Shown: in pieces, positions 1 to 14,496 of the stretch | Layout: each line of letters begins with the position of its first letter | Numbering within the stretch: position 1 is the first letter of the stretch | NCBI GenBank assembly: GCA_037133055.1 | Contig: JBAXOY010000080.1 | Span: 1-14,496 of the forward strand | Direction: 5' to 3' | DNA from: Chlamydiota bacterium | Lineage (GTDB): Bacteria > Auribacterota > Tritonobacteria > UBA1439 | Length of the DNA stretch: 14,496 nucleotides | Notes under the pieces: generated by a model | Seen by the model: only the letters and a program-made list of their open reading frames with translations | The model's database searches: none | What the model was told of the DNA's origin: nothing | Program-made: the position numbers and the translations under genes

Positions 1-160
1 GTGGACTAGTAGAGGCCAGAATTGATTCTGACGCAAAAATCGACTCGTGAGAGGGAACGTCTGCAATTAGTCCTTGCGTTTTCCAATAGTTTTTGATATT
101 TACATTTAAAAAGCGGGCAGAGTGGGGCTCTATCCTTACCGGGCCATGGAGGAGTGTGTC

Positions 161-2083
161 GTGAGACGCAGGATAATGTTGTGCGTGTTTGCCTTCTTGG
201 TTGCTTTGATTATTCCCCGCTTCTCCGCATCGCAGCCCGCCTCCTCACCGTGGCCTATGTTCGGGCATGATGTGCAGCACACTGCGAGGGGCTTGTACAG
301 CCGCTCACAATCATGCGCTCTCTCCTGGAGCTATACAATGGGGTACGTGTCATCCGTTGCGGTGGGTGCGGACGGCAGGATATATCTCGGCTCCAGTGGC
401 AATGCGATACATTGCGTAACTCCTTACGGCACTCTTGCATGGAGCTATATGACAAGAGGCAGAGTGGATTCCTCCTCCCCCGCACTCGCGACTGACGGGA
501 AGGTCTATGTGGGTTCCTGGGACTATGCGCTCTACTCAATCAGCTTTGATGGAAGTTTCGCGTGGAGTTACAGGACTGGTGGAGGGGTGCAATCCTCCCC
601 TGCTTTGGGGAGCGACGGGAGGATTTATGTGGGGTCTTCTGACAACCGGCTTTATTCTTTTTCCCCAGCCGGATCGATCGCGTGGAGTTACTTGACCGGC
701 GGGTATGTGTCCTCTTCCCCCGCGCTGGGGGTCGACGATAGGGTATATATTGGCTCTGATGACAGCAGGCTCTACTCACTCAGCTCTCAAGGGGGCCTCT
801 TATGGAGCTATGCGACGCCTGCGTTCATACAATCGTCCCCCGCCCTCTCATCGGATGAAACCGCATACATTGGAGTCGAAAGACGGATTGAGGCTGTCGG
901 TTCAAACGGGGCTCTCGCCTGGAGCTATCTTACCTACTTACCTGGGGGTTCATTCAATTCTGCCTCTGCCGCCATCGGCTCGTTGGATACCCTCTATATC
1001 GGGTCCACGGACTTTAACCTGTATTCTCTTACCTCCCGCGGGTCCCTTGCATGGAGCTATTCAGCAGGGTACGCCATCGCGTCGTCATTTCCGGCCCTCG
1101 ACCCTGACGGCATGATATATTTTGGCAGCGGGGATAACCGAATCTACTCTCTGACTCCCACGGGATTGCTCGTGTGGAGCTACGTGGCGGCAGGTCAGGT
1201 ATGGGAATCTCCCGTACTCGGCTCGGATGGGAAAGTCTATGTAGGATCCAGCGACGAAAACCGGCTTTACGCCCTCGTGGGGGCATTGACGCCCCTCCCC
1301 ACCCTTACCCCGACCGTAACACCGACGGGGCCGACACCTACGCCGACAATCACCACCACTCCAACAAGGACGCCCACTGGCACAGTGACCCCGACGGTAA
1401 CCTTCACGCCGACGACAAGCCCTACGGCGACGATAGCACCCACGACCCCCCCGGGGACCTTTTACTACAGGTCCGATACCCATACCGTCAATGGGCAAAC
1501 ATGCTATGCGCTGAGCAACCAGAACAGCTCCAATGCGACCTACATGATCATCTGGAGCGAGCCTCCCGGAGAGGGGTGCGCGGGCAATCCCTACTGGTAC
1601 TCGGACATTTACATCAGGCACGCGGACGGATCTGAAACTCTTCTGGGGACGACGATGGGTGAGATTTGGGGCTCTCAATGGGGCGAGGTATCCAAGACAT
1701 GGACCTGCCCCGCGACAAATCTCCTGAGAACCGACGCTCTCAAGATAGTCGAGCATATACAGTTGTGGGAGGGACTCAGCGACAGCGAGAATTTCATCAC
1801 CTCCCCGCTGGGAGCGGACCGGATGGGAAGCACCGAGTGGACACTGACTCGCTGGGTGTGGGGATATTGCTTCAGGGGGGTGACGACATACGAGTATCTT
1901 TACTGGGGTGATAGCGCACAGCAGACGCGCGTGAGCAATGTCAGCTTCACGACATTCACGCCGACCCCGACGACGCCCTGGGGGACCGTGAACTTCCAGC
2001 CCGTTTCGGAGACACCACCCCCCGGCTTCTGGTCCGACGACGGCTCCCCGTTCGGGACCCACGGGGACTACGGCTGGCTCTGA
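161..2083 (+). CDS. Secreted PQQ-like/BamB-like 8-bladed beta-propeller repeat protein with Pro/Thr linker, unknown beta-rich domain and short C-terminal VNFQP..YGW motif
   Basis: The ORF opens at 122, but GTG at 161 follows a GGAGGAG RBS (149-155) and gives a signal peptide (MRRRIMLCVFAFLVALII..SASQ). It has a WPMFGHD cap, eight ~40-aa repeats (WSYxTGGxVxSSPALGSDGRIYVGSxDNRLY) and a long TPTPT linker. Confidence 0.9.
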   Translation: MRRRIMLCVFAFLVALIIPRFSASQPASSPWPMFGHDVQHTARGLYSRSQSCALSWSYTMGYVSSVAVGADGRIYLGSSGNAIHCVTPYGTLAWSYMTRGRVDSSSPALATDGKVYVGSWDYALYSISFDGSFAWSYRTGGGVQSSPALGSDGRIYVGSSDNRLYSFSPAGSIAWSYLTGGYVSSSPALGVDDRVYIGSDDSRLYSLSSQGGLLWSYATPAFIQSSPALSSDETAYIGVERRIEAVGSNGALAWSYLTYLPGGSFNSASAAIGSLDTLYIGSTDFNLYSLTSRGSLAWSYSAGYAIASSFPALDPDGMIYFGSGDNRIYSLTPTGLLVWSYVAAGQVWESPVLGSDGKVYVGSSDENRLYALVGALTPLPTLTPTVTPTGPTPTPTITTTPTRTPTGTVTPTVTFTPTTSPTATIAPTTPPGTFYYRSDTHTVNGQTCYALSNQNSSNATYMIIWSEPPGEGCAGNPYWYSDIYIRHADGSETLLGTTMGEIWGSQWGEVSKTWTCPATNLLRTDALKIVEHIQLWEGLSDSENFITSPLGADRMGSTEWTLTRWVWGYCFRGVTTYEYLYWGDSAQQTRVSNVSFTTFTPTPTTPWGTVNFQPVSETPPPGFWSDDGSPFGTHGDYGWL

Positions 2084-2241
2084 CCGTCGCCGCGGCTCCG
2101 CCGTCGCGCAAGTCCATTTCCCCATAAAGGACACCCTGCCATCTGTCGATATACAGGGCTGTCGTCCGGGCACTTAGGCTCGCAAGACTTCATCCTACGC
2201 ATTTAACCTGAAATATAAAAGGGGCCTCAATTGAGGCTCAA

Positions 2242-2309
2242 GGGATTTCGAGAGACCTCGACAGGCTCGGTCTTTCCCTTCGGGAAACTCGCAGCCCTCG
2301 CTCAATCCC
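2242..2309. repeat. Nested REP-like palindromic unit A
   Basis: Closing stem GGGATT/AATCCC encloses TCGAG..CGCTC, an inner AGACC-TCGACAGGCTC-GGTCT and a TTTCCC-TTC-GGGAAA hairpin. 2240-2262 matches 13128-13150 at 21/23 nt. Confidence 0.7.
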
Positions 2310-2350
2310 AAAATGAAAAGGGCCCGAATATCTGGCCCTTTTCATTTTGG
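2308..2350 (-). terminator. Intrinsic-terminator-like hairpin overlapping a tRNA-like 3' end on the minus strand (probably bidirectional)
   Basis: Perfect 17-bp inverted repeat CCAAAATGAAAAGGGCC (2308-2324) / GGCCCTTTTCATTTTGG (2334-2350) with a 9-nt loop and A/T tracts. Confidence 0.7.
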
Positions 2351-2753
2351 CTCCCCGGGGCGATGGCGGAGCGAACCCTGCTTTGGGATGTCTTCGACTA
2401 TGTGTTCGAGGCCGACCGCCGGCGGATAAAGCCAATCCGGACATACCGGAACCCGGTCTTCCTTGCCCGGGAGTGGTCTGACGCAATGCGATCGGGCAAC
2501 TTCCGGTCACACCGGGCGTTCGCCCATGCGCTTAAATTATCACACGCCCGGGTATCCCAGGTGCTGGGGCTCCTGCGGCTTTGCCCACAGGCGCTTGGAC
2601 AGATTGAAGGACTAGGGGATTCTCTCACATCCAGAGCAGTCACCGAGAGGAAGCTCAGGCCGGTATTGAGTCTGCCCCGTGAAGAACAAATGCAGAAGAT
2701 TAGAACGATTCTCGCTTTGGCCTCCCACGGGTGATTGCGTATTTCCCCCCCAA
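2348..2753 (+). repeat. Copy 1 of a ~400-bp dispersed repeat (att-like junction + HTH ORF)
   Basis: Begins TGGCTCCCCGGGGCGATGGCGGAGCGAACC. It aligns over its length with 8114-8513 and, with more divergence, with 9502-9878. Confidence 0.95.
2363..2734 (+). CDS. 123-aa ParB/Spo0J-like HTH protein; possibly a displaced serine-recombinase C-terminal tail (frame reads WLPG-A-MAERT..)
   Basis: SHRAFAHALKLSHARVSQVLGLLRLCP..VTERKLRPVLSLP resembles the ParB HTH and following helix. Changes between copies are synonymous-biased. There is no clear RBS before the ATG. Confidence 0.65.
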   Translation: MAERTLLWDVFDYVFEADRRRIKPIRTYRNPVFLAREWSDAMRSGNFRSHRAFAHALKLSHARVSQVLGLLRLCPQALGQIEGLGDSLTSRAVTERKLRPVLSLPREEQMQKIRTILALASHG

Positions 2754-2967
2754 ACCTTCGTCACTTTCGGCAAAGTGATATTCCTACATCATCCGGATCT
2801 CAATATGTCATCCACATGATAGAACTGAAGGAATGCGTATTTCAATCAGGAGGTCCGGAAATGGCTTTGATATACTCTGCGTGACGGGATAGCGGTGTCC
2901 CTAGACGCACATCGTTTTGCCCTATTCCCCTCTGAGGAAAAGACCTTCGATCCATTGAGAGGAAGAG

Positions 2968-4731
2968 ATGCGTTTCAGCTACCGTGGAAGCCTCTATGCA
3001 AGTTTCCTGATTACCGTCACCGTCCCGATTATTCTTGCATACATATTGTTCCAAACATTCCTAAGGGAAACGGCGCGAGGCGAATTCTATTCTCAGGCGG
3101 AACGCGTCGCCCGCGGGGTAACGGAGGAGATACAACACCGATCGAGAAGCCTCCTCCACCTCGCCGCAATCTACGCGAAGGACCGATTTATCCTGTCGGC
3201 CGCCGCGAGTCGCGACCGCGCCGTCATGGAACAGCGTCTTTCCGAGCTCTATAGATATTCGAATCTGGACCTCCTCGAAGTGGGGGATTCAAACGGATAC
3301 GTCCTCGCGAGGGGGCACCGACCCCAGGAGTACGGGGAACAGAAATCATCGCAACTTATCATCAAGAACGCGCTGAAAGGCCGGGAAGACGCCGACATCG
3401 AATACGGTGCGTCGGGAATCGCGCTGCGGGCTGTCGCCCCTATTCTTGCCACCCCGGATAAACCCACGGGTACCCTGATGACAGGGGTCCTCTTGAACAG
3501 GGACTTTTTTGACATCTACAAGACCATCACGGGCTTCGACATCGCGCTCTTTGCAGGCGATACCTTGATAGCTGGTACCTTCCTCAATGCCCCCAGCGTG
3601 GCATCCACATTGCCCCGCTACAACCCCCATGATGGTCCCCAGCTCACCAAGGCCGTCTTCAGACTCAACAACGCGGAGATGTGGGGGGTTGCAATCCCTG
3701 TGTATCATATGAGCGGTACCCCATTGGGGAGCCTGCTCTTGTGGAAAGAGCGCGACGTCATCCTCAAGCCCCTGCGGGTCAACCAGCTCACCCTCGCCCT
3801 CTCATTCATTGTGGCTTGTATTTTCGCCGCCGTTCTTGCCGTATTCCTAAGCCGGAACTTCTCCTCTCCCCTGAAAAAGATGCTTCCAGTCATGGATCGT
3901 GTTTCCCGTGGGCACATGGATGCTTCAATGCCGGACTTGCGATGGAAGGAATTCCATGAGCTGTCGCGGCATTTTCAGAATATGGTCGGCGAGCTAAAAA
4001 ATTCGCAGGATAAGATCATGCACACCCAGCAGCAGCTGATCGTTGCGGCGAAGTTCGCGGTCCTCGGGCAGGTGACCGCCGAACTCGCGCACGAGGTGCG
4101 GAACCCGCTCAACTCGATGGAGATCACACTTCGCCTGCTCAAGGAGGAGGTCGGGGAAGGGCACTTCCCAGCCCACGGCATCATCGAGAAGATCGAATGC
4201 GTCCACTCCGAGATAAAGCGGCTCGACCAGACCATACGGGATTTCGTGGAGGCGGGAGGCAGCATCGCCCTGAAGAAGACCCGTTCGGATCTCACAGAGG
4301 AGGTTCGAGCCGTGCTCGCGCTTGCCGCACCACAAGTGGAGATGCTGGGGATCGGAATCGAACTCGATCTGGGGGTCGCATTGCCGGCGGAGGTCGACCG
4401 GAATCGGTTTCGCCAGGCCGTGCTCAACCTGTTGCTGAACGCCTGCCAGTCGATGAGGCCGGGGGGGCGACTCACCATCAAGGGCATACGCAGCGGGGAC
4501 CGGGTGGTCATCGCCATCCGCGACACCGGCATGGGGATGGGTAGGGAGGAGAAGGCGCGGCTCCTCGATTTTCCTTTCACGACAAAACCCGGGGGGATGG
4601 GTTGCGGCCTGCCCTATGTGATGAGAATCGTTCAGGCCCACGGCGGCGAGTTCGACATGGATTCCGAGGAAGGGGCGGGAACCACGGTGAGGATTTCTCT
4701 CCCGGCGGCCCGCGGGGGAGGAGACGCATGA
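2968..4731 (+). CDS. Membrane sensor histidine kinase (TM, Cache-like extracytoplasmic domain, TM, HAMP, HisKA, HATPase)
   Basis: Two hydrophobic TM segments, H-box AHEVRNPL, N-box NLLLNA, G1 DTGMG, F-box FPFTTK and G2 GMGCGL. Its stop overlaps the next start (ATGA). Confidence 0.95.
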   Translation: MRFSYRGSLYASFLITVTVPIILAYILFQTFLRETARGEFYSQAERVARGVTEEIQHRSRSLLHLAAIYAKDRFILSAAASRDRAVMEQRLSELYRYSNLDLLEVGDSNGYVLARGHRPQEYGEQKSSQLIIKNALKGREDADIEYGASGIALRAVAPILATPDKPTGTLMTGVLLNRDFFDIYKTITGFDIALFAGDTLIAGTFLNAPSVASTLPRYNPHDGPQLTKAVFRLNNAEMWGVAIPVYHMSGTPLGSLLLWKERDVILKPLRVNQLTLALSFIVACIFAAVLAVFLSRNFSSPLKKMLPVMDRVSRGHMDASMPDLRWKEFHELSRHFQNMVGELKNSQDKIMHTQQQLIVAAKFAVLGQVTAELAHEVRNPLNSMEITLRLLKEEVGEGHFPAHGIIEKIECVHSEIKRLDQTIRDFVEAGGSIALKKTRSDLTEEVRAVLALAAPQVEMLGIGIELDLGVALPAEVDRNRFRQAVLNLLLNACQSMRPGGRLTIKGIRSGDRVVIAIRDTGMGMGREEKARLLDFPFTTKPGGMGCGLPYVMRIVQAHGGEFDMDSEEGAGTTVRISLPAARGGGDA

Positions 4732-6083
4732 AGAAAGTCTTGATTGTCGAGGACGAAAAAATCGCCTGTGATAACCTCGGCCAGTTCCTGCTGAAGAAGG
4801 GATACTCCCCCTCGTGCGCGTATACTTTCGCGGAGGCGAGGGAGCAGATCCGGTCGGAGCGGCACGACATCTACCTGGTGGACGTGCGCCTCCCCGACGG
4901 CAACGGTCTGGAACTCATTCCCGCGATCCGAGGGGCCCTCTCGGACGCGATCATCATCATCCTCACCGCCTACGCGACGGTCGAGAACGCGGTGAGCGCG
5001 CTGAAGTCCGGAGCGGACCACTACCTGATAAAACCGATAGACCTCGAAGAGCTGCTCGTTGTGGTTAGGAAGGAGGAGCGCCTATCCGTGCAGCAGAAGA
5101 CCGCCGCACTGGGGACGGAGACCCCCCCCCTGGCCGGCCATGAGGACCTCATCGGCACCAGCCGGGTGATGCTTCCGGTGCTCGATCTCATCAAAAGGCT
5201 GTGCCTTTCCGACGCGAGCGTTCTCATCACGGGGGAAAGCGGCACGGGGAAGGAGCTCGCGGCGAGGACCCTGCACTACTCCGGGCCGCGCGGGAAGAAG
5301 CGCTTCGTGCCCGTCAACTGTGCGGCGCTACCCGAGCCGCTGCTCGAAAGCGAGTTGTTCGGTCACGTCAAGGGGGCGTTCACAGGCGCCCTGCAGGACC
5401 GCGAGGGGAAGTTCGAGTACGCAGATGGAGGCACGCTCTTCCTCGATGAGATCGGCGAACTCGGCCTCGCCCTCCAGGCGAAATTTCTCCGCATCCTCGA
5501 GCAGAAATCCTTCGTGAAACTTGGGTCGAACCGCGAAACGGTCGCGGACGTCCGGATACTCGCCTCGACGAACCGCGACCTCAAGGAAATGGTCGACAAG
5601 GGGCTCTTCAGGGAGGACCTCTACTGGCGCCTGAACGTGGTCGAGATCCATCTTCCGCCCCTCCGTGAGAGGGCGGAGGACATAGAACTGTTTGCGCGAC
5701 ATTTTCTGGCGCAGTACGCGGAGCGGTCGAACAAAGCGGTCCCGGCGCTCTCCCCCGACGTGCGGGAGATCTTCCGCGAATATCCATGGCCGGGCAATGT
5801 CCGTGAGATGGAAAACGTGCTCGAGCGGGCATTCATCCTCATGGAGTCTCCCACGCTCACGGTGGACCTTCTCCCGACACGACTTCGCAACCTCGCCTCC
5901 GTCGTCCCCCCTCCCGCGGAGACCGGGAACGAGCCGCTTCAGAAGCTGCTCGGCGATTTCGAGAGGGACGTGATACTCAAGGTCCTCCAGCAGGAAAACG
6001 GAAGCAGGGCCAAAGCGGCGGAACGGCTGCGAATCAGCCTCCGGACGCTCCAGTACAAGCTGAAGGAATACAACATCACCTGA
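4728..6083 (+). CDS. Sigma54-dependent response regulator (NtrC/AtoC family; REC-AAA+-Fis HTH)
   Basis: Start MKKVLIVEDE at 4728 (ATGA overlap, GGAGGAG RBS). Contains DVRLPDGNG, Walker A GESGTGKE, GAFTGA, LFLDEIGE, WPGNVRE and C-terminal AAERLRISLRTLQYKL. Confidence 0.97.
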   Translation: MKKVLIVEDEKIACDNLGQFLLKKGYSPSCAYTFAEAREQIRSERHDIYLVDVRLPDGNGLELIPAIRGALSDAIIIILTAYATVENAVSALKSGADHYLIKPIDLEELLVVVRKEERLSVQQKTAALGTETPPLAGHEDLIGTSRVMLPVLDLIKRLCLSDASVLITGESGTGKELAARTLHYSGPRGKKRFVPVNCAALPEPLLESELFGHVKGAFTGALQDREGKFEYADGGTLFLDEIGELGLALQAKFLRILEQKSFVKLGSNRETVADVRILASTNRDLKEMVDKGLFREDLYWRLNVVEIHLPPLRERAEDIELFARHFLAQYAERSNKAVPALSPDVREIFREYPWPGNVREMENVLERAFILMESPTLTVDLLPTRLRNLASVVPPPAETGNEPLQKLLGDFERDVILKVLQQENGSRAKAAERLRISLRTLQYKLKEYNIT

Positions 6084-6086
6084 ACG

Positions 6087-6131
6087 CGTCGTTGTGCAAG
6101 GCATTGCACAACGACGTGCAGAATCATGCAC
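6087..6131. promoter_or_regulatory. Tandem enhancer (UAS) palindromes for a sigma54 activator
   Basis: GTGCA-N6-TGCAC at 6094-6109 and 6116-6131, 22 bp apart. The first lies within a perfect 13-bp inverted repeat (6087-6099/6104-6116). They sit about 120-160 bp upstream of the -24 box. Confidence 0.8.
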
Positions 6132-6251
6132 ACGGACGCGTGTGCATCCATTCATTCTCCACAGGAGCCACCCAGTATCCCCCATCCATATTCGCCCGTA
6201 TCCCCTTGCTCGCTTCATTGTTGGACAGCGGGATTGCATTCCCTCGAACTC

Positions 6252-6268
6252 TTGGCACGGAAGTTGCT
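6252..6268 (+). promoter_or_regulatory. Sigma54 (-24/-12) promoter
   Basis: TTGGCACGGAAGTTGCT matches the TGGCAC-N5-TTGCW consensus and lies about 60 bp before the ATG at 6331. Confidence 0.9.
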
Positions 6269-6330
6269 TATTTCTGCGATGGAGATACTGTCAGACTGTT
6301 CACGGGTCGCCAAGAAAAGGAGGGCAGGCC

Positions 6331-6879
6331 ATGGTCATGTTCTCCATCAAAGCTCTGTCCATCGTCGAGGAGCAGCTCCTCAGGTTGCACACTCAGGTTG
6401 TCGCCGCGCTGCGAAAACCTGAGCTTTTGACCGGACCGTCTTCCCTGCGTGACGAGGCGATACAGCTCCATATGTCCGCATTCGGAGATCTGGCGAACGG
6501 CGATTCGCTACCGTTCTTCCGCTGGCATTATATCGAGATTTCCGGCAGCCTAGTGACCCTCGCCCGCCGCATGGATGCCCTCATTTCCTTCATTGCATCC
6601 CTTCAACCAAATGAGCGAACCATGCTTGCGAATCTCTCCGAGGTCTTCATCGCCTTGGGCAAGGTTATGGAAATGTTCATGCACGCATGGGCCTATCTGC
6701 GCACGGACATGAAGAAGGCCAGAGAGGAACTGCAAGAAATTGCGGCAAAGATAGCCCGGTTCGAGGACTTCGCCGCGAAGCAGGATCTGGGCACGGCGGC
6801 ACTCCTGGCACCGGTCACGGACGCTCTCTATATGGTGGACATATCCATGAAAAAGCTGGTCGTTCTCCTAAGGCTATGA
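6331..6879 (+). CDS. Divergent DUF47/PhoU-like helical protein (PiT accessory)
   Basis: AAGGAGG RBS before ATG 6331; 182 aa with an amphipathic helical pattern. LANGDSLPFFRWHY and YLRTDMKKAREELQEI resemble DUF47 segments, and the gene precedes the PiT genes. Confidence 0.6.
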   Translation: MVMFSIKALSIVEEQLLRLHTQVVAALRKPELLTGPSSLRDEAIQLHMSAFGDLANGDSLPFFRWHYIEISGSLVTLARRMDALISFIASLQPNERTMLANLSEVFIALGKVMEMFMHAWAYLRTDMKKAREELQEIAAKIARFEDFAAKQDLGTAALLAPVTDALYMVDISMKKLVVLLRL

Positions 6880-6900
6880 CCCAGCACGAAGGATACACAC

Positions 6901-7032
6901 ATGTTTATCAGTCGCGCGCTTCTCGGGGGACTCTTCCTCGCGTGGTGCATCGGGGCGAATAACGGTGCCAACGTATTTGGCACCGCAGTGGCAACAATGT
7001 TCGACGCGACCTATTTCAGCCTCCCGTCATAA
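6901..7032 (+). pseudogene. Truncated PiT-family paralog (43 aa, N-terminal motif only)
   Basis: Not in the ORF track. Translates MFISRALLGGLFLAWCIGANNGANVFGTAVAT-MFDATYFSLPS*, parallel to LFGGLFLGWGIGANNAANMFGTAVGT of the next gene. Has an AAGGA RBS. Confidence 0.85.
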
Positions 7033-7049
7033 ACCAAAAGGTAGCGATT

Positions 7050-8027
7050 GTGATCGCATTAGTCAAACTTTTCGGCGGCCTTTTCCTCGGATGGGGAATC
7101 GGAGCCAACAACGCCGCCAACATGTTCGGCACGGCGGTCGGCACCGGCGCCGTGAAGTACCGCACCGCCGTTGGCTGCGTCGCGGCTTTCGTCCTCATCG
7201 GCTCCTTCCTCGAGGGGTACAAGCTCTACGACGGCTACAAGTTCGACAAGAGCGGTGAGTTCAAGGTCTCCTTCTCCCAGGCGGCCGTCGCAACCACCGC
7301 CGCTGCCGTGAGCATCATGTTCCAGACGTACCTCGGCATCCCCACCTCCACCACGCAGAACGCCATCGGCGGCGTGATGGGGATCTCCATCCTGTCGATG
7401 GGGATGGGAGGGATAAGCTGGATGAAGCTACTCTACTGGCTTGTCTCCTGGATAATCCTCCCCGTCGCCGCAGCGGCGATTGCATATGCCGGCGTCAGGG
7501 GGATCGGCTGGATTATCCAGCGCACGGTGAAGGACATGCCGCATCTCAACACGGTCTACAAGCTCTGCCTCCTCGTCTTCGGCTGCTATGGGGCGTACGC
7601 GATGGGAGCGAACAACGTCGTCGTCACAACGGGGCCGTTCTACCATGCGGGATTCTTCGGCGATCCGACGCACGCACACGCCGTCTTCGCCGCCACGCTC
7701 GGCGGCCTTGCCATGGCAGTCGGGGCGCTCACCTACGGGGGGAATGTCATCCGGACCGTCGGCAAGGACATCACCGCGCTCGACCCGTTCTCCGCACTCA
7801 TCGCCGTGCTTACGCACTCGCTCGTCGTCCACTTCTTCACGCAGCTCGCCATCCCGGTCTCGTCGTCCCAGGCGATCGTGGGTGCGGTTGCTGGGGTGGG
7901 GCTCGTCAGAGGGGTGAACACCGTCAACTCAAAGAAACTCTGGGCCATATTCTCCGCATGGTTCTTGTCCCCGGTCGTCGCCGCGCTGCTCGCGATGGGC
8001 ATCGCGTTTGCGCTGGGCATACGCTGA
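7050..8027 (+). CDS. PiT (PHO4) family inorganic phosphate/anion transporter
   Basis: Two PHO4 repeats (GANNAANMFGTAVG..GIPTSTTQ and GANNVV..AIPVSSSQAIVGAVAGVG) and multiple TM helices. Confidence 0.92.
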   Translation: MIALVKLFGGLFLGWGIGANNAANMFGTAVGTGAVKYRTAVGCVAAFVLIGSFLEGYKLYDGYKFDKSGEFKVSFSQAAVATTAAAVSIMFQTYLGIPTSTTQNAIGGVMGISILSMGMGGISWMKLLYWLVSWIILPVAAAAIAYAGVRGIGWIIQRTVKDMPHLNTVYKLCLLVFGCYGAYAMGANNVVVTTGPFYHAGFFGDPTHAHAVFAATLGGLAMAVGALTYGGNVIRTVGKDITALDPFSALIAVLTHSLVVHFFTQLAIPVSSSQAIVGAVAGVGLVRGVNTVNSKKLWAIFSAWFLSPVVAALLAMGIAFALGIR

Positions 8028-8079
8028 AAAGTGCAATAGACCGTGGTGGAATAGGGTGCGCCGCGTTCAACCCTAAAAG

Positions 8080-8109
8080 GAAAAGGGACCTCGATTGAGG
8101 TCCCTTTTC
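8080..8109. terminator. Terminator-like hairpin abutting junction 2
   Basis: Perfect 13-bp inverted repeat GAAAAGGGACCTC-GATT-GAGGTCCCTTTTC, about 50 bp after the PiT stop. Confidence 0.75.
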
Positions 8110-8113
8110 AAAA

Positions 8114-8513
8114 CTCTCCGGGGCGATGGCGGAGCGAGCCCTGCTTCGGGACGTGTTCGACTATGTGTTCGAGGCCGACCGCCGGCGGATAAGACCGATC
8201 CGGACATACCGGAACCCGGTTTTCCTTGCCCGGGAGTGGGCGGAGGCAATGCGATCGGGCAACTTCCGGTCACGCCGGGCGTTCGCCCATGCGCTTGGAT
8301 TATCACACGCACGGGTATCACAGGTGCTTGGGCTCCTGCGGCTTTGCCCACAGGCGCTTGGACAGATTGAAGGACTGGGGGATTCTCTCACATCCGGAGC
8401 AGTCACCGAGAGGAAGCTCAGGCCGGTATTGAGCCTGCCCCGCGAAAAGCAAGTACATAGGATTAGAACGATTCTCGCTTTGGCCCCCGCTGATGATTGC
8501 CTATCCCCCCCAA
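8114..8513 (+). repeat. Copy 2 of the dispersed att-like/HTH repeat
   Basis: Begins CTCTCCGGGGCGATGGCGGAGCGAGCC and is highly similar to 2351-2753 through TGATTGC..CCCCCCAA. Confidence 0.95.
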
Positions 8514-8671
8514 GAGTGCTACGCTTTACATCGCTAGACTGCTCACCGAAGGGAGGGGCTTATGAAATACAGATTGTTGCTCGCCGGGATGGTTCTCAGC
8601 ATAATATGGGTTCCCAGCGCAGTGCTCTACGGAGGTATCACGCCGGGCTTCTGGAAATCCGCCGACGGTAG
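8126..8671 (+). CDS. HTH protein copy 2; homology ends ~8496 and the rest is frameshift read-through
   Basis: Near-identical to 2363-2734. A 1-nt loss near 8485-8493 puts the homologous TGA out of frame, so the ORF runs into the next gene. Confidence 0.55.
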   Translation: MAERALLRDVFDYVFEADRRRIRPIRTYRNPVFLAREWAEAMRSGNFRSRRAFAHALGLSHARVSQVLGLLRLCPQALGQIEGLGDSLTSGAVTERKLRPVLSLPREKQVHRIRTILALAPADDCLSPPRVLRFTSLDCSPKGGAYEIQIVARRDGSQHNMGSQRSALRRYHAGLLEIRRR

Positions 8672-9425
8672 TACAGAGTTCTACGTTTCATCCGACGGAA
8701 CGCAGGTCTATAACTTCGCCATCCATATCACCGTCTCCGGTTGTGGGGCGTATAAAATCACCCACACGTACAATATTCCCATCGTCGGCAATTCATTTTC
8801 CTTCACGGGCCCCTACTATGCCTCGGGGACGTTTTTATCGGATACCTCATCCTCCGGGAACTACGGTCTCGACCAGTTACCCATCTCTGGCTGTGGCAAT
8901 GTGAGTAGCGGACCGTGGACATGGAACGCAGTATGTACACAGGCTTATTTCACCCCGACGCCCACGCCGAGCGGCAAGCCACCCACGGCGGAGTTGCACA
9001 TGCCGTCGCCCGACACGCTCTTCCCCGGGGAGAACGCCGTACTCGGGTACCGTATCCGGCTCCAGGACCCGTCGTGGGCGGGCGCCCCCGCCGACGCCTA
9101 TCTCGGCGTTGTCCCGCCGACCGGCGGGCTCCTCTACATCGGCTCGCGGGGGCGCTTTTACACGAGCCAGAACCCGATCGTGCGGAACCTCGCGATCGCC
9201 GACATAGATGGAGAGCTAGACTTCGGGCCGCTCCCGGTCGAGTACCCGACGGGCATCTACACCTTCTACGGTGTGCTCGCGCGGCCGGGGATGAGCTCCC
9301 TGCAGGTCTCGGGCCGCATCTCGAACGTTGACAGCACACAGTTCGAGCTCCTGCCGGCGCCCATCGCGCCCCCGACGCCCACGCCGGGCGGACCCACGCC
9401 CACGCACCCTGGCCTGGAGCTATGA
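8562..9425 (+). CDS. Secreted modular protein (beta-rich domain, Pro/Thr linker, second beta-sandwich-like domain, Pro/Thr tail)
   Basis: GGGAGGGG RBS, signal peptide MKYRLLLAGMVLSIIWVPSA, two SGCG motifs and TPTPTP linkers. Ends abruptly inside a linker. Confidence 0.8.
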   Translation: MKYRLLLAGMVLSIIWVPSAVLYGGITPGFWKSADGSTEFYVSSDGTQVYNFAIHITVSGCGAYKITHTYNIPIVGNSFSFTGPYYASGTFLSDTSSSGNYGLDQLPISGCGNVSSGPWTWNAVCTQAYFTPTPTPSGKPPTAELHMPSPDTLFPGENAVLGYRIRLQDPSWAGAPADAYLGVVPPTGGLLYIGSRGRFYTSQNPIVRNLAIADIDGELDFGPLPVEYPTGIYTFYGVLARPGMSSLQVSGRISNVDSTQFELLPAPIAPPTPTPGGPTPTHPGLEL

Positions 9426-9497
9426 CACCTTGTCCGATGGGCTGTACTCCATCGCGCGCAATAATAGCAACGGGGCGTTGTATGGTGGTTCGACATC
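9406..9497 (+). pseudogene. Degenerate single WSY beta-propeller blade fragment
   Basis: Frame of ORF 9328 reads TLAWSYDTLSDGLYSIARNNSNGALYGGST, matching the register of the blades in 161-2083 (WSY..S.A..SDG.IYVGS). Confidence 0.5.
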
Positions 9498-9501
9498 AAT
9501 G

Positions 9502-9878
9502 CTCCCCGGGGCGATGGCGGAGCGAACCCTGCTTTGGGACGTGTTCGACTATGTGTTCGAGGCCGACCGCCGGCGGATTAGGCCGATCCGAACCTACCGG
9601 AACCCGATCTTCCTTGCCCGGGAGTGGGCGGAGGCGATGCAAGAGGGGGTTTTCCAGTCCCGGAGGGCTTTCGCGAGGGCGATCGGCCTATCCCATGCCA
9701 GGGTGTCCCAGGTGCTTGGTCTCCTCCGGCTCTGCCCGCAGGGCTTGAGGGGGATCGAGGCGCTCGGGGATCCGCTCTTGTCCCGGATAGTCATAGAGAG
9801 GAAGCTCAGGCCGATTGTCATGCTCTCCGGGAAGGCGCAGAAACAGGGCTTAAGAAGATGTTGGCCGTCAGACGGTGA
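9502..9878 (+). repeat. Copy 3 (most diverged) of the dispersed att-like/HTH repeat
   Basis: The first ~77 nt differ from copy 1 at 2 positions. The 3' part differs mainly at synonymous sites. Confidence 0.9.
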
Positions 9879-9909
9879 AGGTTTATGTTTCAATTCCTTG
9901 CCCGTCTGA
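9514..9909 (+). CDS. HTH protein copy 3, probably frameshifted near 9848
   Basis: MAERTLLWDVFDY..AIGLSHARVSQVLGLLRLCP..ERKLRPIV. The homologous end LKKMLAVRR* lies in another frame (stop 9876-9878). Confidence 0.55.
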   Translation: MAERTLLWDVFDYVFEADRRRIRPIRTYRNPIFLAREWAEAMQEGVFQSRRAFARAIGLSHARVSQVLGLLRLCPQGLRGIEALGDPLLSRIVIERKLRPIVMLSGKAQKQGLRRCWPSDGEGLCFNSLPV

Positions 9910-9945
9910 TACCATTTCTACGGCCTATACGTTGGGAGGAGGACG

Positions 9946-10392
9946 GTGGAACGGCCCATTGCCTTGTTTACGATCGGATATGAAGGCTCGGACATGGATT
10001 CCTTCATTGCCCGCCTGGAGCAATCCCAGATAAATCGCGTCGTTGACGTGAGGGAAATTCCCTTATCGCGCAAGCCGGGATTTTCAAAAACTTCCCTGCG
10101 GGAAAAGCTTGAGGAGGAAGGGATCGAATACGTCCATATTCAACGGCTTGGGAGTCCCAAAGCGATTAGGAACAAGCTGAAAGAGGACGAGGACTATAAT
10201 TCCTTTTTTCAGTCATGCTCAACCTACCTTAACGACAATTATCTCGCCATCGAGGAAGCATACCGGCACGTCCTTGAGGCCAATTGCTGCCTCATGTGTT
10301 TTGAACGGCGCCCTAATAAATGCCATCGTTCTCTGGTTGCAGAGAAGATCAGAGAACGAGATGGTAACGGCCTCCGCATAGTCAACATATAG
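9946..10392 (+). CDS. DUF488 family protein
   Basis: GGAGGAGG RBS; motifs LFTIGYEG, VVDVREIPLSRKPGFSK, YVHIQRLGSP and CLMCFE..CHRSLVA. Confidence 0.9.
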   Translation: MERPIALFTIGYEGSDMDSFIARLEQSQINRVVDVREIPLSRKPGFSKTSLREKLEEEGIEYVHIQRLGSPKAIRNKLKEDEDYNSFFQSCSTYLNDNYLAIEEAYRHVLEANCCLMCFERRPNKCHRSLVAEKIRERDGNGLRIVNI

Positions 10393-10406
10393 GCAGAAAG
10401 ACCGCC

Positions 10407-10466
10407 GTGCTTACGCAAACAAAAAGAATTCTCATCACGGTCAAAGTGACACGACCCGGTTATTGA
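10407..10466 (+). pseudogene. 5' stub of a DUF488-associated gene
   Basis: MLTQTKRILITVK-VTRPGY*. It resembles the KRVLITVKTYP start I recall for DUF488 neighbour proteins; it is short and unverified. Confidence 0.4.
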
Positions 10467-10630
10467 CTCAACTCTACCTCGATTCCCTGGCCGAGGATAT
10501 TGATAGAAACCAGTCCCTTGTGATCTACTGCACCCGGCGCGTTAGCAGGCTGAATATTCCGGACAATATTGAGATCAGGAAGATTCCGCGTGATCTCCTT
10601 GAGAAATGCGATTTTGAGGAGGACAAATAG
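10448..10630 (+). pseudogene. 3' remnant of a type III R-M Mod (DNA methyltransferase) gene
   Basis: Start-less frame DTTRLLTQLYLDSLAEDIDRNQSLVIYCTRR..NIEIRKIPRDLLEKCDFEEDK* resembles the TT..LLI.C..NI.IKKIP..LL.KCEF C-terminus of Mod subunits (recalled). It ends 3 nt before the next ATG. Confidence 0.6.
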
Positions 10631-10633
10631 ACG

Positions 10634-11767
10634 ATGACAGTGGGAAAAAGAAACAGCCTTGCGCAAGGTAGTACTTATTTGTCCGCTGTCGCCGGAGTGG
10701 CGGCGGAGATACGGAACCTGATTGAGTCCGCCCGAAGTCATGTCGCGGCTTCGGCCAATCTGGCACTCGTGAATTTGTACTGGAACATTGGGCGGGTGAT
10801 TACTCAGGATATCCAAAAGGATGAGAAGCGAGCTGGATATGGGGATCTCTTGATGGAACGCCTGGCGACGATGTTGACAAGGGACTTTGGTTCAGGGTAC
10901 TCCATTCATAATCTAAGGGATATGAGGCGATTTCATGACATGTTTGAGATTCGGCAGACGCCGTCTGCCGAATTGGACGAAGAGAGAAAACGGCAGACGG
11001 TGTCTGCCGAATCCTGTGAGCGTATCCGTATTGATTTCCGGAAACATTACCGCCTGGGTTGGTCGCACTATCGGCTGCTTTTGAGTCAGGGCGATTCAGT
11101 CCGGCGCATGTTCTATTTTGAACAGGTGGCTAACCAACGCTGGTCGGTGCGCGAACTGCGGCGGCAGATTGACCGCGGACTGTTCGAGCGCGTGGCGCTT
11201 TCCAAGGACTCCCGGCAATTGGTGATAAGGGAGAAGCAGAAAGGGCCGGTTGAGATTGTCCGTTATGATGATGTGTTCAAGGATCCCTACGTTCTCGACT
11301 TCCTGGGACTGAAAGATTCTTACTCCGAAAAGGATCTTGAGGCCGCCATCATTCGGAACCTGGAGCAATTCCTTTCCGAACTTGGGACCGATTTCTGTTT
11401 TATTAAGCGACAGTATCCTATGCGGATTGACGATGACGATTACTTCCTGGATTTGCTCTTCTTCCATCGCAGCCTGAATTGCCTTGTTGCAATAGAATTG
11501 AAGATCGGTACCTTTACCGCGGCCGATAAAAGCCAAATGGACCTCTACCTCGCGTGGTTGAAGGAGCATGAATGGCGGAGGGGTGAGAACGAGCCGGTGG
11601 GGCTGATTCTCTGCACCTCCAAGCGCCGTCAACACGTCGAGCTATTGTTGCGGCACGGACCACACAAGATGAAAGTGGCCGAGTATCTGACGAAGATGCC
11701 GGACAAGCGGATTCTGGAAGCGAGGTTGAGAATGTACGGCAATCTGCTGAAAGAAGGGGCAGTATGA
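10634..11767 (+). CDS. DUF1016 / YhcG-like PD-(D/E)XK nuclease family protein
   Basis: LYWNIGRVI, RAGYG, LGWSHYRLL, WSVRELRRQI, KDPYVLDFLGL, SEKDLE, DLLFFHR..VAIELK and QMDLYL..ENEPVGLILC. Confidence 0.95.
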   Translation: MTVGKRNSLAQGSTYLSAVAGVAAEIRNLIESARSHVAASANLALVNLYWNIGRVITQDIQKDEKRAGYGDLLMERLATMLTRDFGSGYSIHNLRDMRRFHDMFEIRQTPSAELDEERKRQTVSAESCERIRIDFRKHYRLGWSHYRLLLSQGDSVRRMFYFEQVANQRWSVRELRRQIDRGLFERVALSKDSRQLVIREKQKGPVEIVRYDDVFKDPYVLDFLGLKDSYSEKDLEAAIIRNLEQFLSELGTDFCFIKRQYPMRIDDDDYFLDLLFFHRSLNCLVAIELKIGTFTAADKSQMDLYLAWLKEHEWRRGENEPVGLILCTSKRRQHVELLLRHGPHKMKVAEYLTKMPDKRILEARLRMYGNLLKEGAV

Positions 11768-11829
11768 GCATCCCTGAACAGATCAGCCGATATGTCCTAG
11801 CGACTGTTAGAAATACCGCAGAAAAATAG
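11764..11829 (+). pseudogene. Possible 5' stub of the next operon gene (type III Res?)
   Basis: ATGA-coupled start MSIPEQISRY.., then an early stop and A-rich DNA. The identity rests only on context. Confidence 0.25.
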
Positions 11830-11989
11830 CAGAAAAAAAACGGAGGGTTTCGCCTTTAATGCAGGCATCGGAAGCCCACAACCCCCGCTGGCATAGGCGC
11901 AACGTATTTGAGCCAAAACTGCACCAAAAATAGACCACTACGGGCGGCGCGGGCGGGAAGAGGAAGTGGACGGGGAATGGATGGGTAAA

Positions 11990-13033
11990 ATGACTTTTAG
12001 ACCGAAGTACACCATCTCAGACGCCACAGCGGTATCGCTGACGGGGATCGAGCGGGCGAGGGGGTTCCTGGAGGCCGCCCGCCTCTCCGAGGACTGGATC
12101 GCCGGGATGCAGCGCCGGGCGCTCGTCCTCGAGGCTCACCACACCACGCACATAGAGGGGACGCACCTCACCCTGGACCAGTCGGAGCGCCTCCTCTCGG
12201 GGAAGGCTGTCCCGGAGGCGAGCCCGGATGACGCCCGCGAGCTCCTGAACTACCGGGACGCATTCGAGCTCGTGGCCGGCTACCTCGGGAGCGGCGAGTC
12301 TATAACTGAGGGGCTCATTCGGGAGATACACAAGCGCCTCGTGCGCGGTGTCCGGGGCGATGCGGGGATGCCCGGGCAGTACCGGACCGGGCAGAACTAC
12401 GTCGTAAACATCCGCACCAGGGAAGTGGTATACACGCCTCCGCCTCCCCATGATGTGCCGCTCTTGATGACGGAGCTCGTCGCGTGGCTCGGGAAGGCCA
12501 AGTCGATCAATCCCGTCCTGGAGGCCGGCGTAGCGCAGTTTCAGCTCGTCCATATTCACCCCTTCGTGGACGGGAACGGCCGGACCGCCAGGCTACTCTC
12601 GACACTTTGCCTCTACCGGAAAGGGTACGACTTCAAGCGCCTCTTCACCATAAGCGAATACTACGACCGGGACCGGGCGGCGTATTACAGTGCAATTCAG
12701 AGTGTCCGGGCGGGTGGAATGGACCTTACGGCATGGCTGGAGTATTTCACGGATGGGCTCGCCGTGCAAATGAAAGAGGTCCAGGAGAAGGGCGAGCGGG
12801 TAATCAGGGCGGACGTGCTCACCCGGAAACACCGCCTCTCCGACCGGCAGCGGGCTGCTCTCGGGCATGCGTTGGAGCACGGCACTATTGCCCTCGATGA
12901 CTACGTCGTCCTGTGCCCGAAGGCAAACCGCCGGACGCTTCAGAGAGATCTCAAAGCAATGGTGGAGAAGGGCTTTCTAATGCAGGAAGGGGCAGGGCCG
13001 GCGGCACATTACCGCTTGAGGGGCAAGGAGTAA
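11990..13033 (+). CDS. Fic family AMPylase with C-terminal winged HTH
   Basis: [12 protein letters not shown] catalytic motif, N-terminal TTHIEG inhibitory-type motif and [15 protein letters not shown] wHTH. Alternative starts at 11966 and 11981. Confidence 0.95.
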
Positions 13034-13037
13034 CGGG

Positions 13038-13080
13038 ATCGCGACAAGATCGCGACATAAATCGCGACATAACCACGACA
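13038..13080 (+). repeat. Four-copy ~11-bp tandem array
   Basis: ATCGCGACA at 13038, 13049 and 13061, and ACCACGACA at 13072. Confidence 0.85.
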
Positions 13081-13129
13081 TCAGAAAACATCGGGGTAAG
13101 ACCCGACTATTGACTGACTTATACCGGAA

Positions 13130-13275
13130 GGGATTTCAAGAGCCCTCGACGGAGTTTACACTGCGCTTGCCGAAGTGCTCGGGCCTCCCTCGCTTTGCTT
13201 GGTCGCTCGTACGGCGCGCTCAGTCCCGGAAGGCATCTCGACTCGTGCAACCTTCGGTTGCACTCGCTCAATGCC
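13130..13275. repeat. Two tandem nested REP-like palindromic units (B, C)
   Basis: GGGATT-TCAAG..CGCTC-AGTCCC (13130-13227) and GGCAT-C-TCGAC-[GTGCAACCTTCGGTTGCAC]-CGCTC-AATGCC (13232-13275), with the same architecture as 2242-2309. Confidence 0.7.
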
Positions 13276-13318
13276 AAAATAAGAAAAGCCCCATCTCTGG
13301 GGCTTTTCTTATTTTGGC
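13273..13318 (-). terminator. Terminator-like hairpin overlapping a tRNA-like 3' end (minus strand)
   Basis: Perfect 21-bp inverted repeat GCCAAAATAAGAAAAGCCCCA / TGGGGCTTTTCTTATTTTGGC with a 4-nt loop. Confidence 0.75.
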
Positions 13319-13416
13319 TCCCCATAGTGGACACGTTTAGAACTCTCTGTATAGCTCCCACTACGGAAATCAGGCGGGTTTTCGCGGATTTGGGCAATTT
13401 AGCAGGGGTGGCATAA
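13315..13416 (+). mobile_element. Junction 4: att-like site and 33-aa recombinase-type tail
   Basis: TGGCTCCCC-N15-AGAACT; reads WLPIVDTFRTLCIAPTTEIRRVFADLGNLAGVA*, in register with WLPGAMAERTL of copy 1. Confidence 0.6.
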
Positions 13417-13477: not shown

Positions 13478-13825
13478 ATGGGAAAGACAAAAGATAGAGG
13501 GAGGTCCAGCGATTCCACCGCAAACAAAGGGACTGCTATCCATTTCTCCGCAAGGGATGACGGGTCGAAGCAGCAGATGGACCGCTTGGTGAAGGAATCT
13601 GCCGGAGAGATAGCGCACCTCAGAAGATCGGTGTTCAAGGATCTACAGGATCGGAGTAGTCTGCTGAGAACGGGGAGGCTTTGGAGCATGACCGAGGCGC
13701 TTAAGGCGACGGAGAAGATAATTGGGAAGCAGAGGCTCTCCGATGTGCCGACAATAAGGCTCTACAAGCTCAGGCTCCGTTATCTGGAACTGCTTGGAGG
13801 AAAAGGGGGAGCGGCTTCTCTATAG
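13478..13825 (+). CDS. Hypothetical basic protein (115 aa)
   Basis: GAGGTGA RBS just before the ATG; no recognised motif. Confidence 0.5.
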   Translation: MGKTKDRGRSSDSTANKGTAIHFSARDDGSKQQMDRLVKESAGEIAHLRRSVFKDLQDRSSLLRTGRLWSMTEALKATEKIIGKQRLSDVPTIRLYKLRLRYLELLGGKGGAASL

Positions 13826-14282: not shown

Positions 14283-14387
14283 AGTAAGGCCTCACTTACA
14301 GTGGGTACTTTCACCCCCCTCCCTATCCCTCCCCCTCAAGGGGGGAGGGGAAAAATGGTGGGACCCCCCCATAAGTGAGGCCGTACT
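14283..14387. mobile_element. 105-bp MITE-like element
   Basis: TIRs AGTAAGGCCTCACTTA / TAAGTGAGGCCGTACT (15/16 match), a flush AAGCAC direct repeat on both sides and an internal CCCTCCCCC/GGGGGAGGG hairpin. Confidence 0.8.
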
Positions 14388-14496
14388 AAGCACAGGCAAA
14401 TAAGCTTCTGCGGACTAAAAATATTTGGTAAGCTCACGTGGCTGTCCTAGCGACCAGATGATGAGACCGTGAAAATGGAGAAAATGGGTAACACTC

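Follow-up and report, generated by a model that had tools for sequence, protein, structure and literature searches.

The window analysed here, a 14,496-nt stretch that makes up the whole of contig C80 (both ends open) of a Chlamydiota bacterium genome (G000; 2.99 Mb, 92% complete), holds an array of unrelated gene modules separated by four junctions, at 2348, 8114, 9502 and 13315. All four lie on the same strand, and each leads into a short open reading frame (ORF) that we call the tail. Our favored explanation, to which we give a probability of about 0.7, is that the array is a stack of stranded islands from a family of large serine recombinases (LSRs) that targets the 3' end of tRNA-Asn, and that the recombinase bodies have since been lost. 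The window is most likely a fossil pile of old insertions rather than a working integron-like capture system. A previous reading of this DNA, made without database searches (hereafter the sequence-only reading), had rightly recognized the junctions and the stacked units devoid of LSR, but preferred cassettes moved in trans and named relics of serial islands as the alternative. It is this alternative that fits better, and intermediates exist in relatives.

Judged from sequence, each tail ORF is a C-terminus severed from an LSR gene that has its attachment (att) site within its own final codons. An LSR reading through ...WLP across the site had been predicted, and relatives bear this out: the LSR end overlaps tRNA-Asn antisense in 4/4 genomes of the same family in which tRNA-Asn was located (seven were searched), and it also overlaps tRNA-Asn in the more distant G013, G024, G031, G039 and G045. 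In G002, G003 and G007 the assembly covers the LSR end alone, the G003 piece being 95% identical to the full LSR P0152. That the att site sits inside the recombinase gene is seen in two pairs of C-terminal forms, P0152 versus P0155 and the LSR of G001 versus P0001. Among 12 long relatives of the LSR end, P0152, P0154, P0156 and others terminate in tRNA antisense, and P0152, in this tRNA-side form, retains the Resolvase, Recombinase and zinc-ribbon domains. Two members of the same LSR family end differently: P0155 (580 amino acids, aa) finishes in tail 4 of the window (94% identity over 33 aa), and P0153 continues, out of frame, into a tail of another type. The 651-aa P0001 closely matches the G001 LSR, which itself reads into tRNA antisense, but a long ParB-like tail of ~120 aa is fused to P0001 in frame, and its C-terminus is 59% identical to tail 1 over 98 aa. 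The 691-aa LSR of G024 also reads in frame into a tail. For the exact long-tail type of the window, in-frame fusion was seen only as a relic, in locus L152 (an LSR-end relic followed by a tail-1-type ORF).

Because the tail ORFs are themselves parts of an integrase gene, the description of the array as integrase-less is true of the catalytic body only. In this limited sense it stands, as Pfam found no recombinase among the 15 ORFs of the window. An LSR was not found elsewhere in the 92%-complete G000 either: there was no PF00239 or PF07508 match, and five full LSRs used as queries matched tails only. Searches of G025, G054 and G048 likewise found no LSR. Two side observations concern LSR genes of relatives. 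At L020 (G003, contig C180, 8200-8290) an LSR directly precedes a tail-1 arm; a tandem duplication close to the end of this LSR cuts it short, and its frame differs from that of the tail. The LSR genes of L087, L099 and L106 (G003, G012 and G022) overlap the start of another gene, presumably of miaB type, suggesting another class of target.

The proposed target, the tRNA-Asn 3' end, was confirmed by a gene on contig C21 of G000 that ends in GGGGAGCCA and matches the junction core. The anticodon of this tRNA-Asn(GTT) gene is interrupted by a group I intron of 379 nt (C21 30443-30821; 55 bits in Rfam against a cut-off of 50), and its exons are identical at all but one of the bases shown to the intron-less tRNA-Asn of G002. 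Interrupted tRNA-Asn genes also occur in G003, G030, G033, G039, G046 and G050, and intron-less ones in G001, G002 and G007. The sequence-only reading had expected a tRNA-Asn and an LSR to the right of the window: the first exists, on this other contig, while the second was not found in the genome. ARAGORN detected no tRNA within the window and missed the gene on C21 too, which it wrongly labels as Asp with introns enabled; its tRNA-Asn call on C31 was dismissed as target, its 3' end being different from the core. On the 3' side of the C21 tRNA-Asn lie a hairpin and a palindromic element that we take to be of the repetitive extragenic palindromic (REP) kind, with homologues in the arms at 2290-2359 and 13220-13323.

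The core TGGCTCCCC is full-length at two junctions, 2348 and 13315, as had been noticed. TGGCTCCCCGGG occurs three times in G000, and so does TTTTGGCTCC, at 2345, at 13312 and at the tRNA-Asn end. The extended joint motif has three copies in 2.99 Mb, every one inside the window, and a ~430-bp repeat that begins at three of the four junctions (77-93% identity over 300 nt, 79-88% by BLASTN) was found by genome-wide BLASTN on C80 alone. The bare 9-mer of the core is unspecific (30 matches genome-wide).

The anatomy of the site indicates which kind of joint these are. Offsets are counted from the TC of GGC-TC-CCC, with the crossover base placed by symmetry. GAAC stands at offset 19 in 20 of the 22 arms of tail types 1, 1b and 4 versus 14 in the tRNA arm, figures to be read knowing that the tails are homologous and that the tRNA arms were chosen by a pattern containing GAAC. 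A 5-bp shift of a motif between attP and attB is described in a section of PMC3783163, and the displacement of GAAC is this same shift. Left arms adjacent to an LSR mirror the tail arm, with GTTC at 19 or 20 in 5/9 of them and CGCCATC opposite GATGGCG in G002, G003, G007 and L152. On the left of 29 tail junctions GTTC was found at offset 14, 19 or 20 in none, and CGCCATC is missing from all four left arms of the window. Because the right-hand P motif is present and the left mirror motifs are missing, the window joints are best read as hybrids of a host arm and a P arm, of attR type, rather than as attP cassette joints, and the site on C21 as an empty attB.

The features of the window are as follows.

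122..2083, + strand: secreted PQQ-type beta-propeller protein (Pfam), probably cargo of another unit further left
2198..2307, + strand: left arm, with a truncated first hairpin and a REP-like palindromic element (GGGATTTC...CTCGCTCAATCCC)
2308..2350: hairpin H1, terminator-like, a perfect stem of 17 bp based on the CCA of the tRNA-end copy
2348..2376, + strand: junction 1, tRNA-Asn end core and P-type right arm, GAAC at offset 19
2363..2734, + strand: tail 1, the presumed detached LSR C-terminus, ParB-like helix-turn-helix, in frame with the WLP of the core
2968..8027, + strand: cargo 1, a histidine kinase, a sigma-54 response regulator, a 182-aa unknown ORF, a PiT stub (43 aa, 6901-7032) and a PiT phosphate transporter
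8080..8109: hairpin H2, 13-bp perfect stem, of the type that follows tRNA-Glu(TTC) on C49
8114..8139, + strand: junction 2, degenerate core C-TC-TCCG, GAGC instead of GAAC at offset 19
8126..8488, + strand: tail 2, with 89% identity to tail 1; the open frame extends to 8671
8562..9425, + strand: cargo 2, a 287-aa protein, probably secreted, with Pro/Thr linkers, a paralogue on C11 and no Pfam match
9496..9527, + strand: junction 3, without hairpin; TCAATGC matches the base of the L058 hairpin arm
9514..9909, + strand: tail 3, 74% identical to tail 1
9946..13033, + strand: cargo 3, defence-like, with DUF488, a 55-aa methyltransferase-like piece, a YhcG/DUF1016 nuclease and Fic
13128..13318, + strand: left arm, REP-like element and hairpin H4 (13273-13318, 21-bp perfect stem)
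13315..13416, + strand: junction 4 and short tail 4, whose 33 aa share 94% identity with the C-terminal 33 residues of the LSR P0155 (580 aa)
13478..13825, + strand: cargo 4, a 115-aa ORF without family match
14443..14496, + strand: terminus of an insertion-sequence-like element that exists in multiple copies; the contig breaks here

At junction 1, 16 nt match the tRNA junction of C21, and the crossover TC would fall at 2352-2353. The perfect hairpins that the sequence-only reading had seen before three junctions are indeed there, and the best stem at 9502 has just 6 bp; the cargo families that it had named were recovered by Pfam. Matches of cargo 3 to defence families are PDC-M19A, MTase_III (weak), PDC-S02 and SoFic, and its 55-aa piece resembles the end of a type III methyltransferase. 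Rfam returned nothing on the window but sub-threshold hairpin matches. The left arm at 2198..2307 has homologues at 13128-13272, on C188 and in the tRNA-Asn flank on C21. The first 55 bases of C188 are those of window 1-55, and C188 terminates in a near copy of the 2179-2343 arm; in 4/4 of the runs whose contigs we searched for joints (4 of 15), window 1-55 also adjoins a copy of 2240-2292, with a roughly twofold depth. An unassembled repeat of about double depth upstream of both C188 and the window implies that the array probably extends further leftwards. At the other side, the insertion-sequence end at 14443-14496 recurs on C28, C168 and C30, with a related opposite end on C21, C100 and C186. 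The element begins with TGT, and its body is unassembled at C80, C21, C28, C100, C168 and C186. Two other repeats were noticed: a palindromic one at 14283-14387, with copies on dozens of G000 contigs, and a 23-bp inverted repeat at 10948-11013, within the YhcG coding sequence.

The arm type found in the window follows only tRNA-Asn and tRNA-Glu(TTC) among 47 tRNA or tmRNA calls inspected, some of them false, which led us to reject a general role of the hairpins as tRNA terminators. After tRNA-Glu(TTC) there is a 7.3-kb stretch of similar build (C49 of G000, 3331-10704). It has a hairpin adjoining the tRNA, carries PQQ and toxin-antitoxin-like genes, and shows at its far end another hairpin, whose short tail is of a different kind; no recombinase was seen in it. 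Decayed short tail-4 arms lie at C172 (~940-1020), C83 (~1290-1330) and C22 (~25700-25870), with no tRNA seen nearby.

The long tail has a confidently predicted fold (pLDDT 86) and resembles the DNA-binding domain of ParB/Spo0J/Noc (profile E 9e-9); Foldseek gave no match at E<=0.001, the best being ParB/Noc at about 0.01. Its family counts 508 clusters, of which the best 150 are all short (52-261 aa). Tail matches occur at E<=0.001 in 22/79 genomes of the phylum, a count that includes G000 and some weak rows; since a fourth, weak match in G000 (on C38) reads as the chromosomal ParB, the weak rows may be ParB too. The closest named loci with a window-type tail include Candidatus Auribacterota, so that the host probably belongs to this phylum. 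In viral contigs we found one weak tail match, no relative of P0001 and no junction motif. Many tails in relatives are truncated or bear stops, and gene stubs occur in the cargo of the window. In G045 there are 20 tail matches (C11, C57, C104, C113, C114 and others); several of them are in mixed orientation, secreted repeat proteins are encoded among them, and a complete LSR is present at the tRNA-Asn.

The course of events that we favor can be put together from these data and from the arms of relatives. In the free element, the att site would lie within the last LSR codons and the gene would read LSR-WLP-tail. Integration would keep the LSR body beside the tRNA, reading into tRNA antisense, and would carry the tail to the far end as a hairpin-core-tail joint of attR type; for this swap of tails both protein forms are at hand and the crossover base is deduced. 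The LSR body would be deleted afterwards, and a new terminator arm would arise beside the tRNA, most likely by a small GIY-YIG/REP/terminator insert duplicating ~20 bp of the tRNA end. With its target emptied again, the tRNA end could receive the next island, each round adding a tail, a block of cargo and a hairpin. By themselves the units would be immobile, although they could travel in cis with an adjoining complete island and may also be exchanged by homologous recombination.

Several intermediates of such a process are visible in relatives. In G025 the tRNA-Asn is followed by two tail junctions on one contig, and in G050 a tail junction lies 6.8 kb from the intron-bearing tRNA-Asn, also on one contig; no LSR stands between in either. 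Relics of LSR ends, 60-170 bp long, are present in G025, G050, G054 and G045. In G050 the tail and the cargo are followed by ~60 bp of the LSR end and ~20 bp of the tRNA end, then by the GIY-YIG gene, a REP-like repeat, a hairpin and finally the tRNA; G025 has the same order minus GIY-YIG. L067 shows a GIY-YIG unit flanked by two hairpins immediately before a tail, and L148 has relic, REP, hairpin and tail in order. Where a tRNA fragment is found at a junction, its match ends just before GAAC (3/3). The GIY-YIG/REP/terminator insert of relatives could supply each hairpin, a renewal of the arm that is seen in relatives and deduced for the window, which retains REP and hairpin alone.

Still, a number of observations weigh against this explanation. 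The left side of the 29 tail junctions shows one full LSR and three LSR-end relics (tblastn), and nothing LSR-like in the other 25, which demands that the LSR was lost nearly every time. The left arms of the window contain no LSR relic, tRNA fragment or GIY-YIG gene, so that the hairpin-renewal step is borrowed from relatives. The tails are tidier than pure decay would leave them, with dN/dS of 0.18-0.37 (10 pairs from five copies) and open frames in all three long tails of the window. P0001 and P0155 could stem from circles or tandem junctions. Also, a linkage of C80 to C21 is plausible, as each terminates at an insertion-sequence-like end, but joining them through that element could not be shown, the flanks having no matching target duplication.

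The idea first proposed for this array, that units of tail, cargo and hairpin are non-autonomous cassettes that circularize and integrate at tRNA-Asn through an LSR acting in trans, as in an integron, has the attraction of explaining why the same architecture recurs without an intervening LSR in G025, G050, G054 and a digester strain, and it could draw on G045, with its 20 tail matches and complete LSR, on the purifying selection on tails, and on the conserved shape of the hairpin arm, which in G025 is the same at the tRNA and at one tail junction. A circle would however bear hairpin and tail together at its joint, and the mirror motifs of the P arm are lacking on the left (0/29 junctions for GTTC, and no CGCCATC in the window). 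The genomes G000, G025, G054 and G048 yielded no LSR to do the work, and attR sites need a directionality factor in order to recombine with any other site, according to the portion of PMC3783163 that treats them. Nor did the predicted signs of movement appear: no core-precise joint or excision was found in the contigs of the four runs, which drop rare variants and cannot show absence, and the one strain comparison available, L064 versus L065, breaks inside the hairpin and not at CTCCCC. Nothing was seen in these data in support of site-specific movement of single units, and we consider trans-acting cassettes quite unlikely.

The same strain comparison is an argument for RecA-type recombination between the 430-500-bp repeats of REP, hairpin and tail, which might have expanded, contracted and swapped blocks after a few LSR insertions. 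Upstream cargo is common to L064 and L065 up to a point inside the REP/hairpin; from there the two loci have unlike hairpins, tail alleles and first cargo, until they converge again in common downstream cargo. The hairpin of L064 equals one that the sister strain has at a different junction. In 1/4 runs, a contig fuses 9543 with 2393 inside the tail, where 35 nt are identical, but this single joint, 338 bp long and of depth 3.7, may be an assembly chimera. A further locus, L059, is identical to window 9480-11960. As the window tails are old relative to each other (dS 0.17-0.89) and junction 4 belongs to another tail family, at least two independent LSR insertions are required, and recombination as the main source of the array seems unlikely. 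Alternatively, the long tail could be a free-standing ParB-like regulator gene carried by islands, its fusion to an LSR being incidental. Tail 1 has its own ATG, the 508 clusters and their short best matches look like stand-alone genes, a single long fusion was found among 695 candidates, and the G003 LSR lies upstream of a tail in another frame. But the ATG belongs to the GATGGCG arm motif, the frame is continuous in P0001, P0155, L152 and the 691-aa LSR of G024, the integrated state itself predicts short stand-alone calls, and the array would be left unexplained by this alone. We regard it as very improbable. Stranded LSR islands account best for the whole.

An integron consists of IntI, attI and an array of accessory modules in the same orientation with a repeated hairpin-bearing joint. 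The window resembles it in its unrelated modules of one orientation and in a repeated joint that bears a hairpin. It differs in having neither IntI nor attI, in its hairpins, which are terminator-like and lie to the left of the crossover, and in its units, which are operons of 1.4-5.8 kb. No core joint that would speak for the mobility of single units appeared in the searched contigs, from which rare variants are dropped. Pfam detected no IntI in the window, a contig open at both ends, and the six tyrosine recombinase matches in G000 are all on other contigs.

Closer parallels exist among stacked islands. Cis-mobilizable elements (CIMEs) and site-specific accretion were reportedly treated by Pavlovic et al. 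in 2004. As outlined in the relevant part of PMC5704250, accretion proceeds by integration, decay of the integrase and entry of a new element into the site beside the target, yielding tandem decayed elements. Like CIMEs, the window units have lost integrase and transfer genes. CIMEs keep both att sites in that account, as do the units of G050 and G025 (tail arm and LSR-end relic), whereas those of the window have kept the far-end P' arm and lost the tRNA-proximal P arm in all four left arms. In the archaeal 'suicidal' SSV-type integrases, integration splits the gene and leaves int(N) and int(C) at the island ends, and gene-disrupting recombinases are called exclusive to archaea in the pertinent passage of PMC8371274. 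The LSRs described here share with them an att site within an integrase gene that integration splits. The archaeal enzymes, as presented there, are tyrosine recombinases that lose their catalytic part, whereas these bacterial LSRs keep catalytic, recombinase and zinc-ribbon domains and swap the tail only. Another close case is found in the ssrA islands of Dehalococcoides (McMurdie et al., 2011; PMC3146451), where the sections concerned describe tandem LSR islands in which dsiB overlaps attP/attL, with 15 islands lacking an integration module. As in the window, these islands lie in tandem at the 3' end of a tRNA-like gene and the LSR gene overlaps att. The differences, as far as those sections go, are that the target here is tRNA-Asn and not ssrA, that no DsiA/ParB/Mom module is seen in the window, and that the far-end piece is a folded 120-aa ParB-like domain, with fused proteins known and a hairpin arm at each joint. 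The authors note there that the DsiB C-terminus is variable and suggest that it is perhaps complete only when the element is circular or stands behind an adjacent island. In a limited literature search we found no account of a fused ParB-like LSR tail or of the GIY-YIG/terminator insert, and nothing on point for tRNA-Asn group I introns or a C-terminal swap of Mx8 type, and these links are tentative.

From these elements a more speculative picture can be drawn, which we offer as a tentative and rather doubtful proposal. A widespread bacterial LSR family at tRNA ends might rewrite its own C-terminus by recombination, the ParB-like 120-aa domain being present on the attP circle only, as a switch for direction, autoregulation or partition. 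The GIY-YIG/REP/terminator element might in turn act as a ratchet that removes GAAC from the old tRNA-side arm, locking the island, rebuilding the target and piling up cargo. The tail swap and this ratchet are the parts most worth testing, and the pattern is not unique to the window. The suggestion made in 2011 for DsiB, an integrase complete only on the circle, becomes testable with both protein forms at hand, and the defined attP/attB pair at a nearly universal tRNA-Asn end could serve integration tools. Some 500 clusters of 'orphan' ParB-like helix-turn-helix proteins would be explained as markers of island ends, and the ratchet, if true, would favor the accumulation of cargo, as the 20 tail matches in a single relative, G045, may illustrate.

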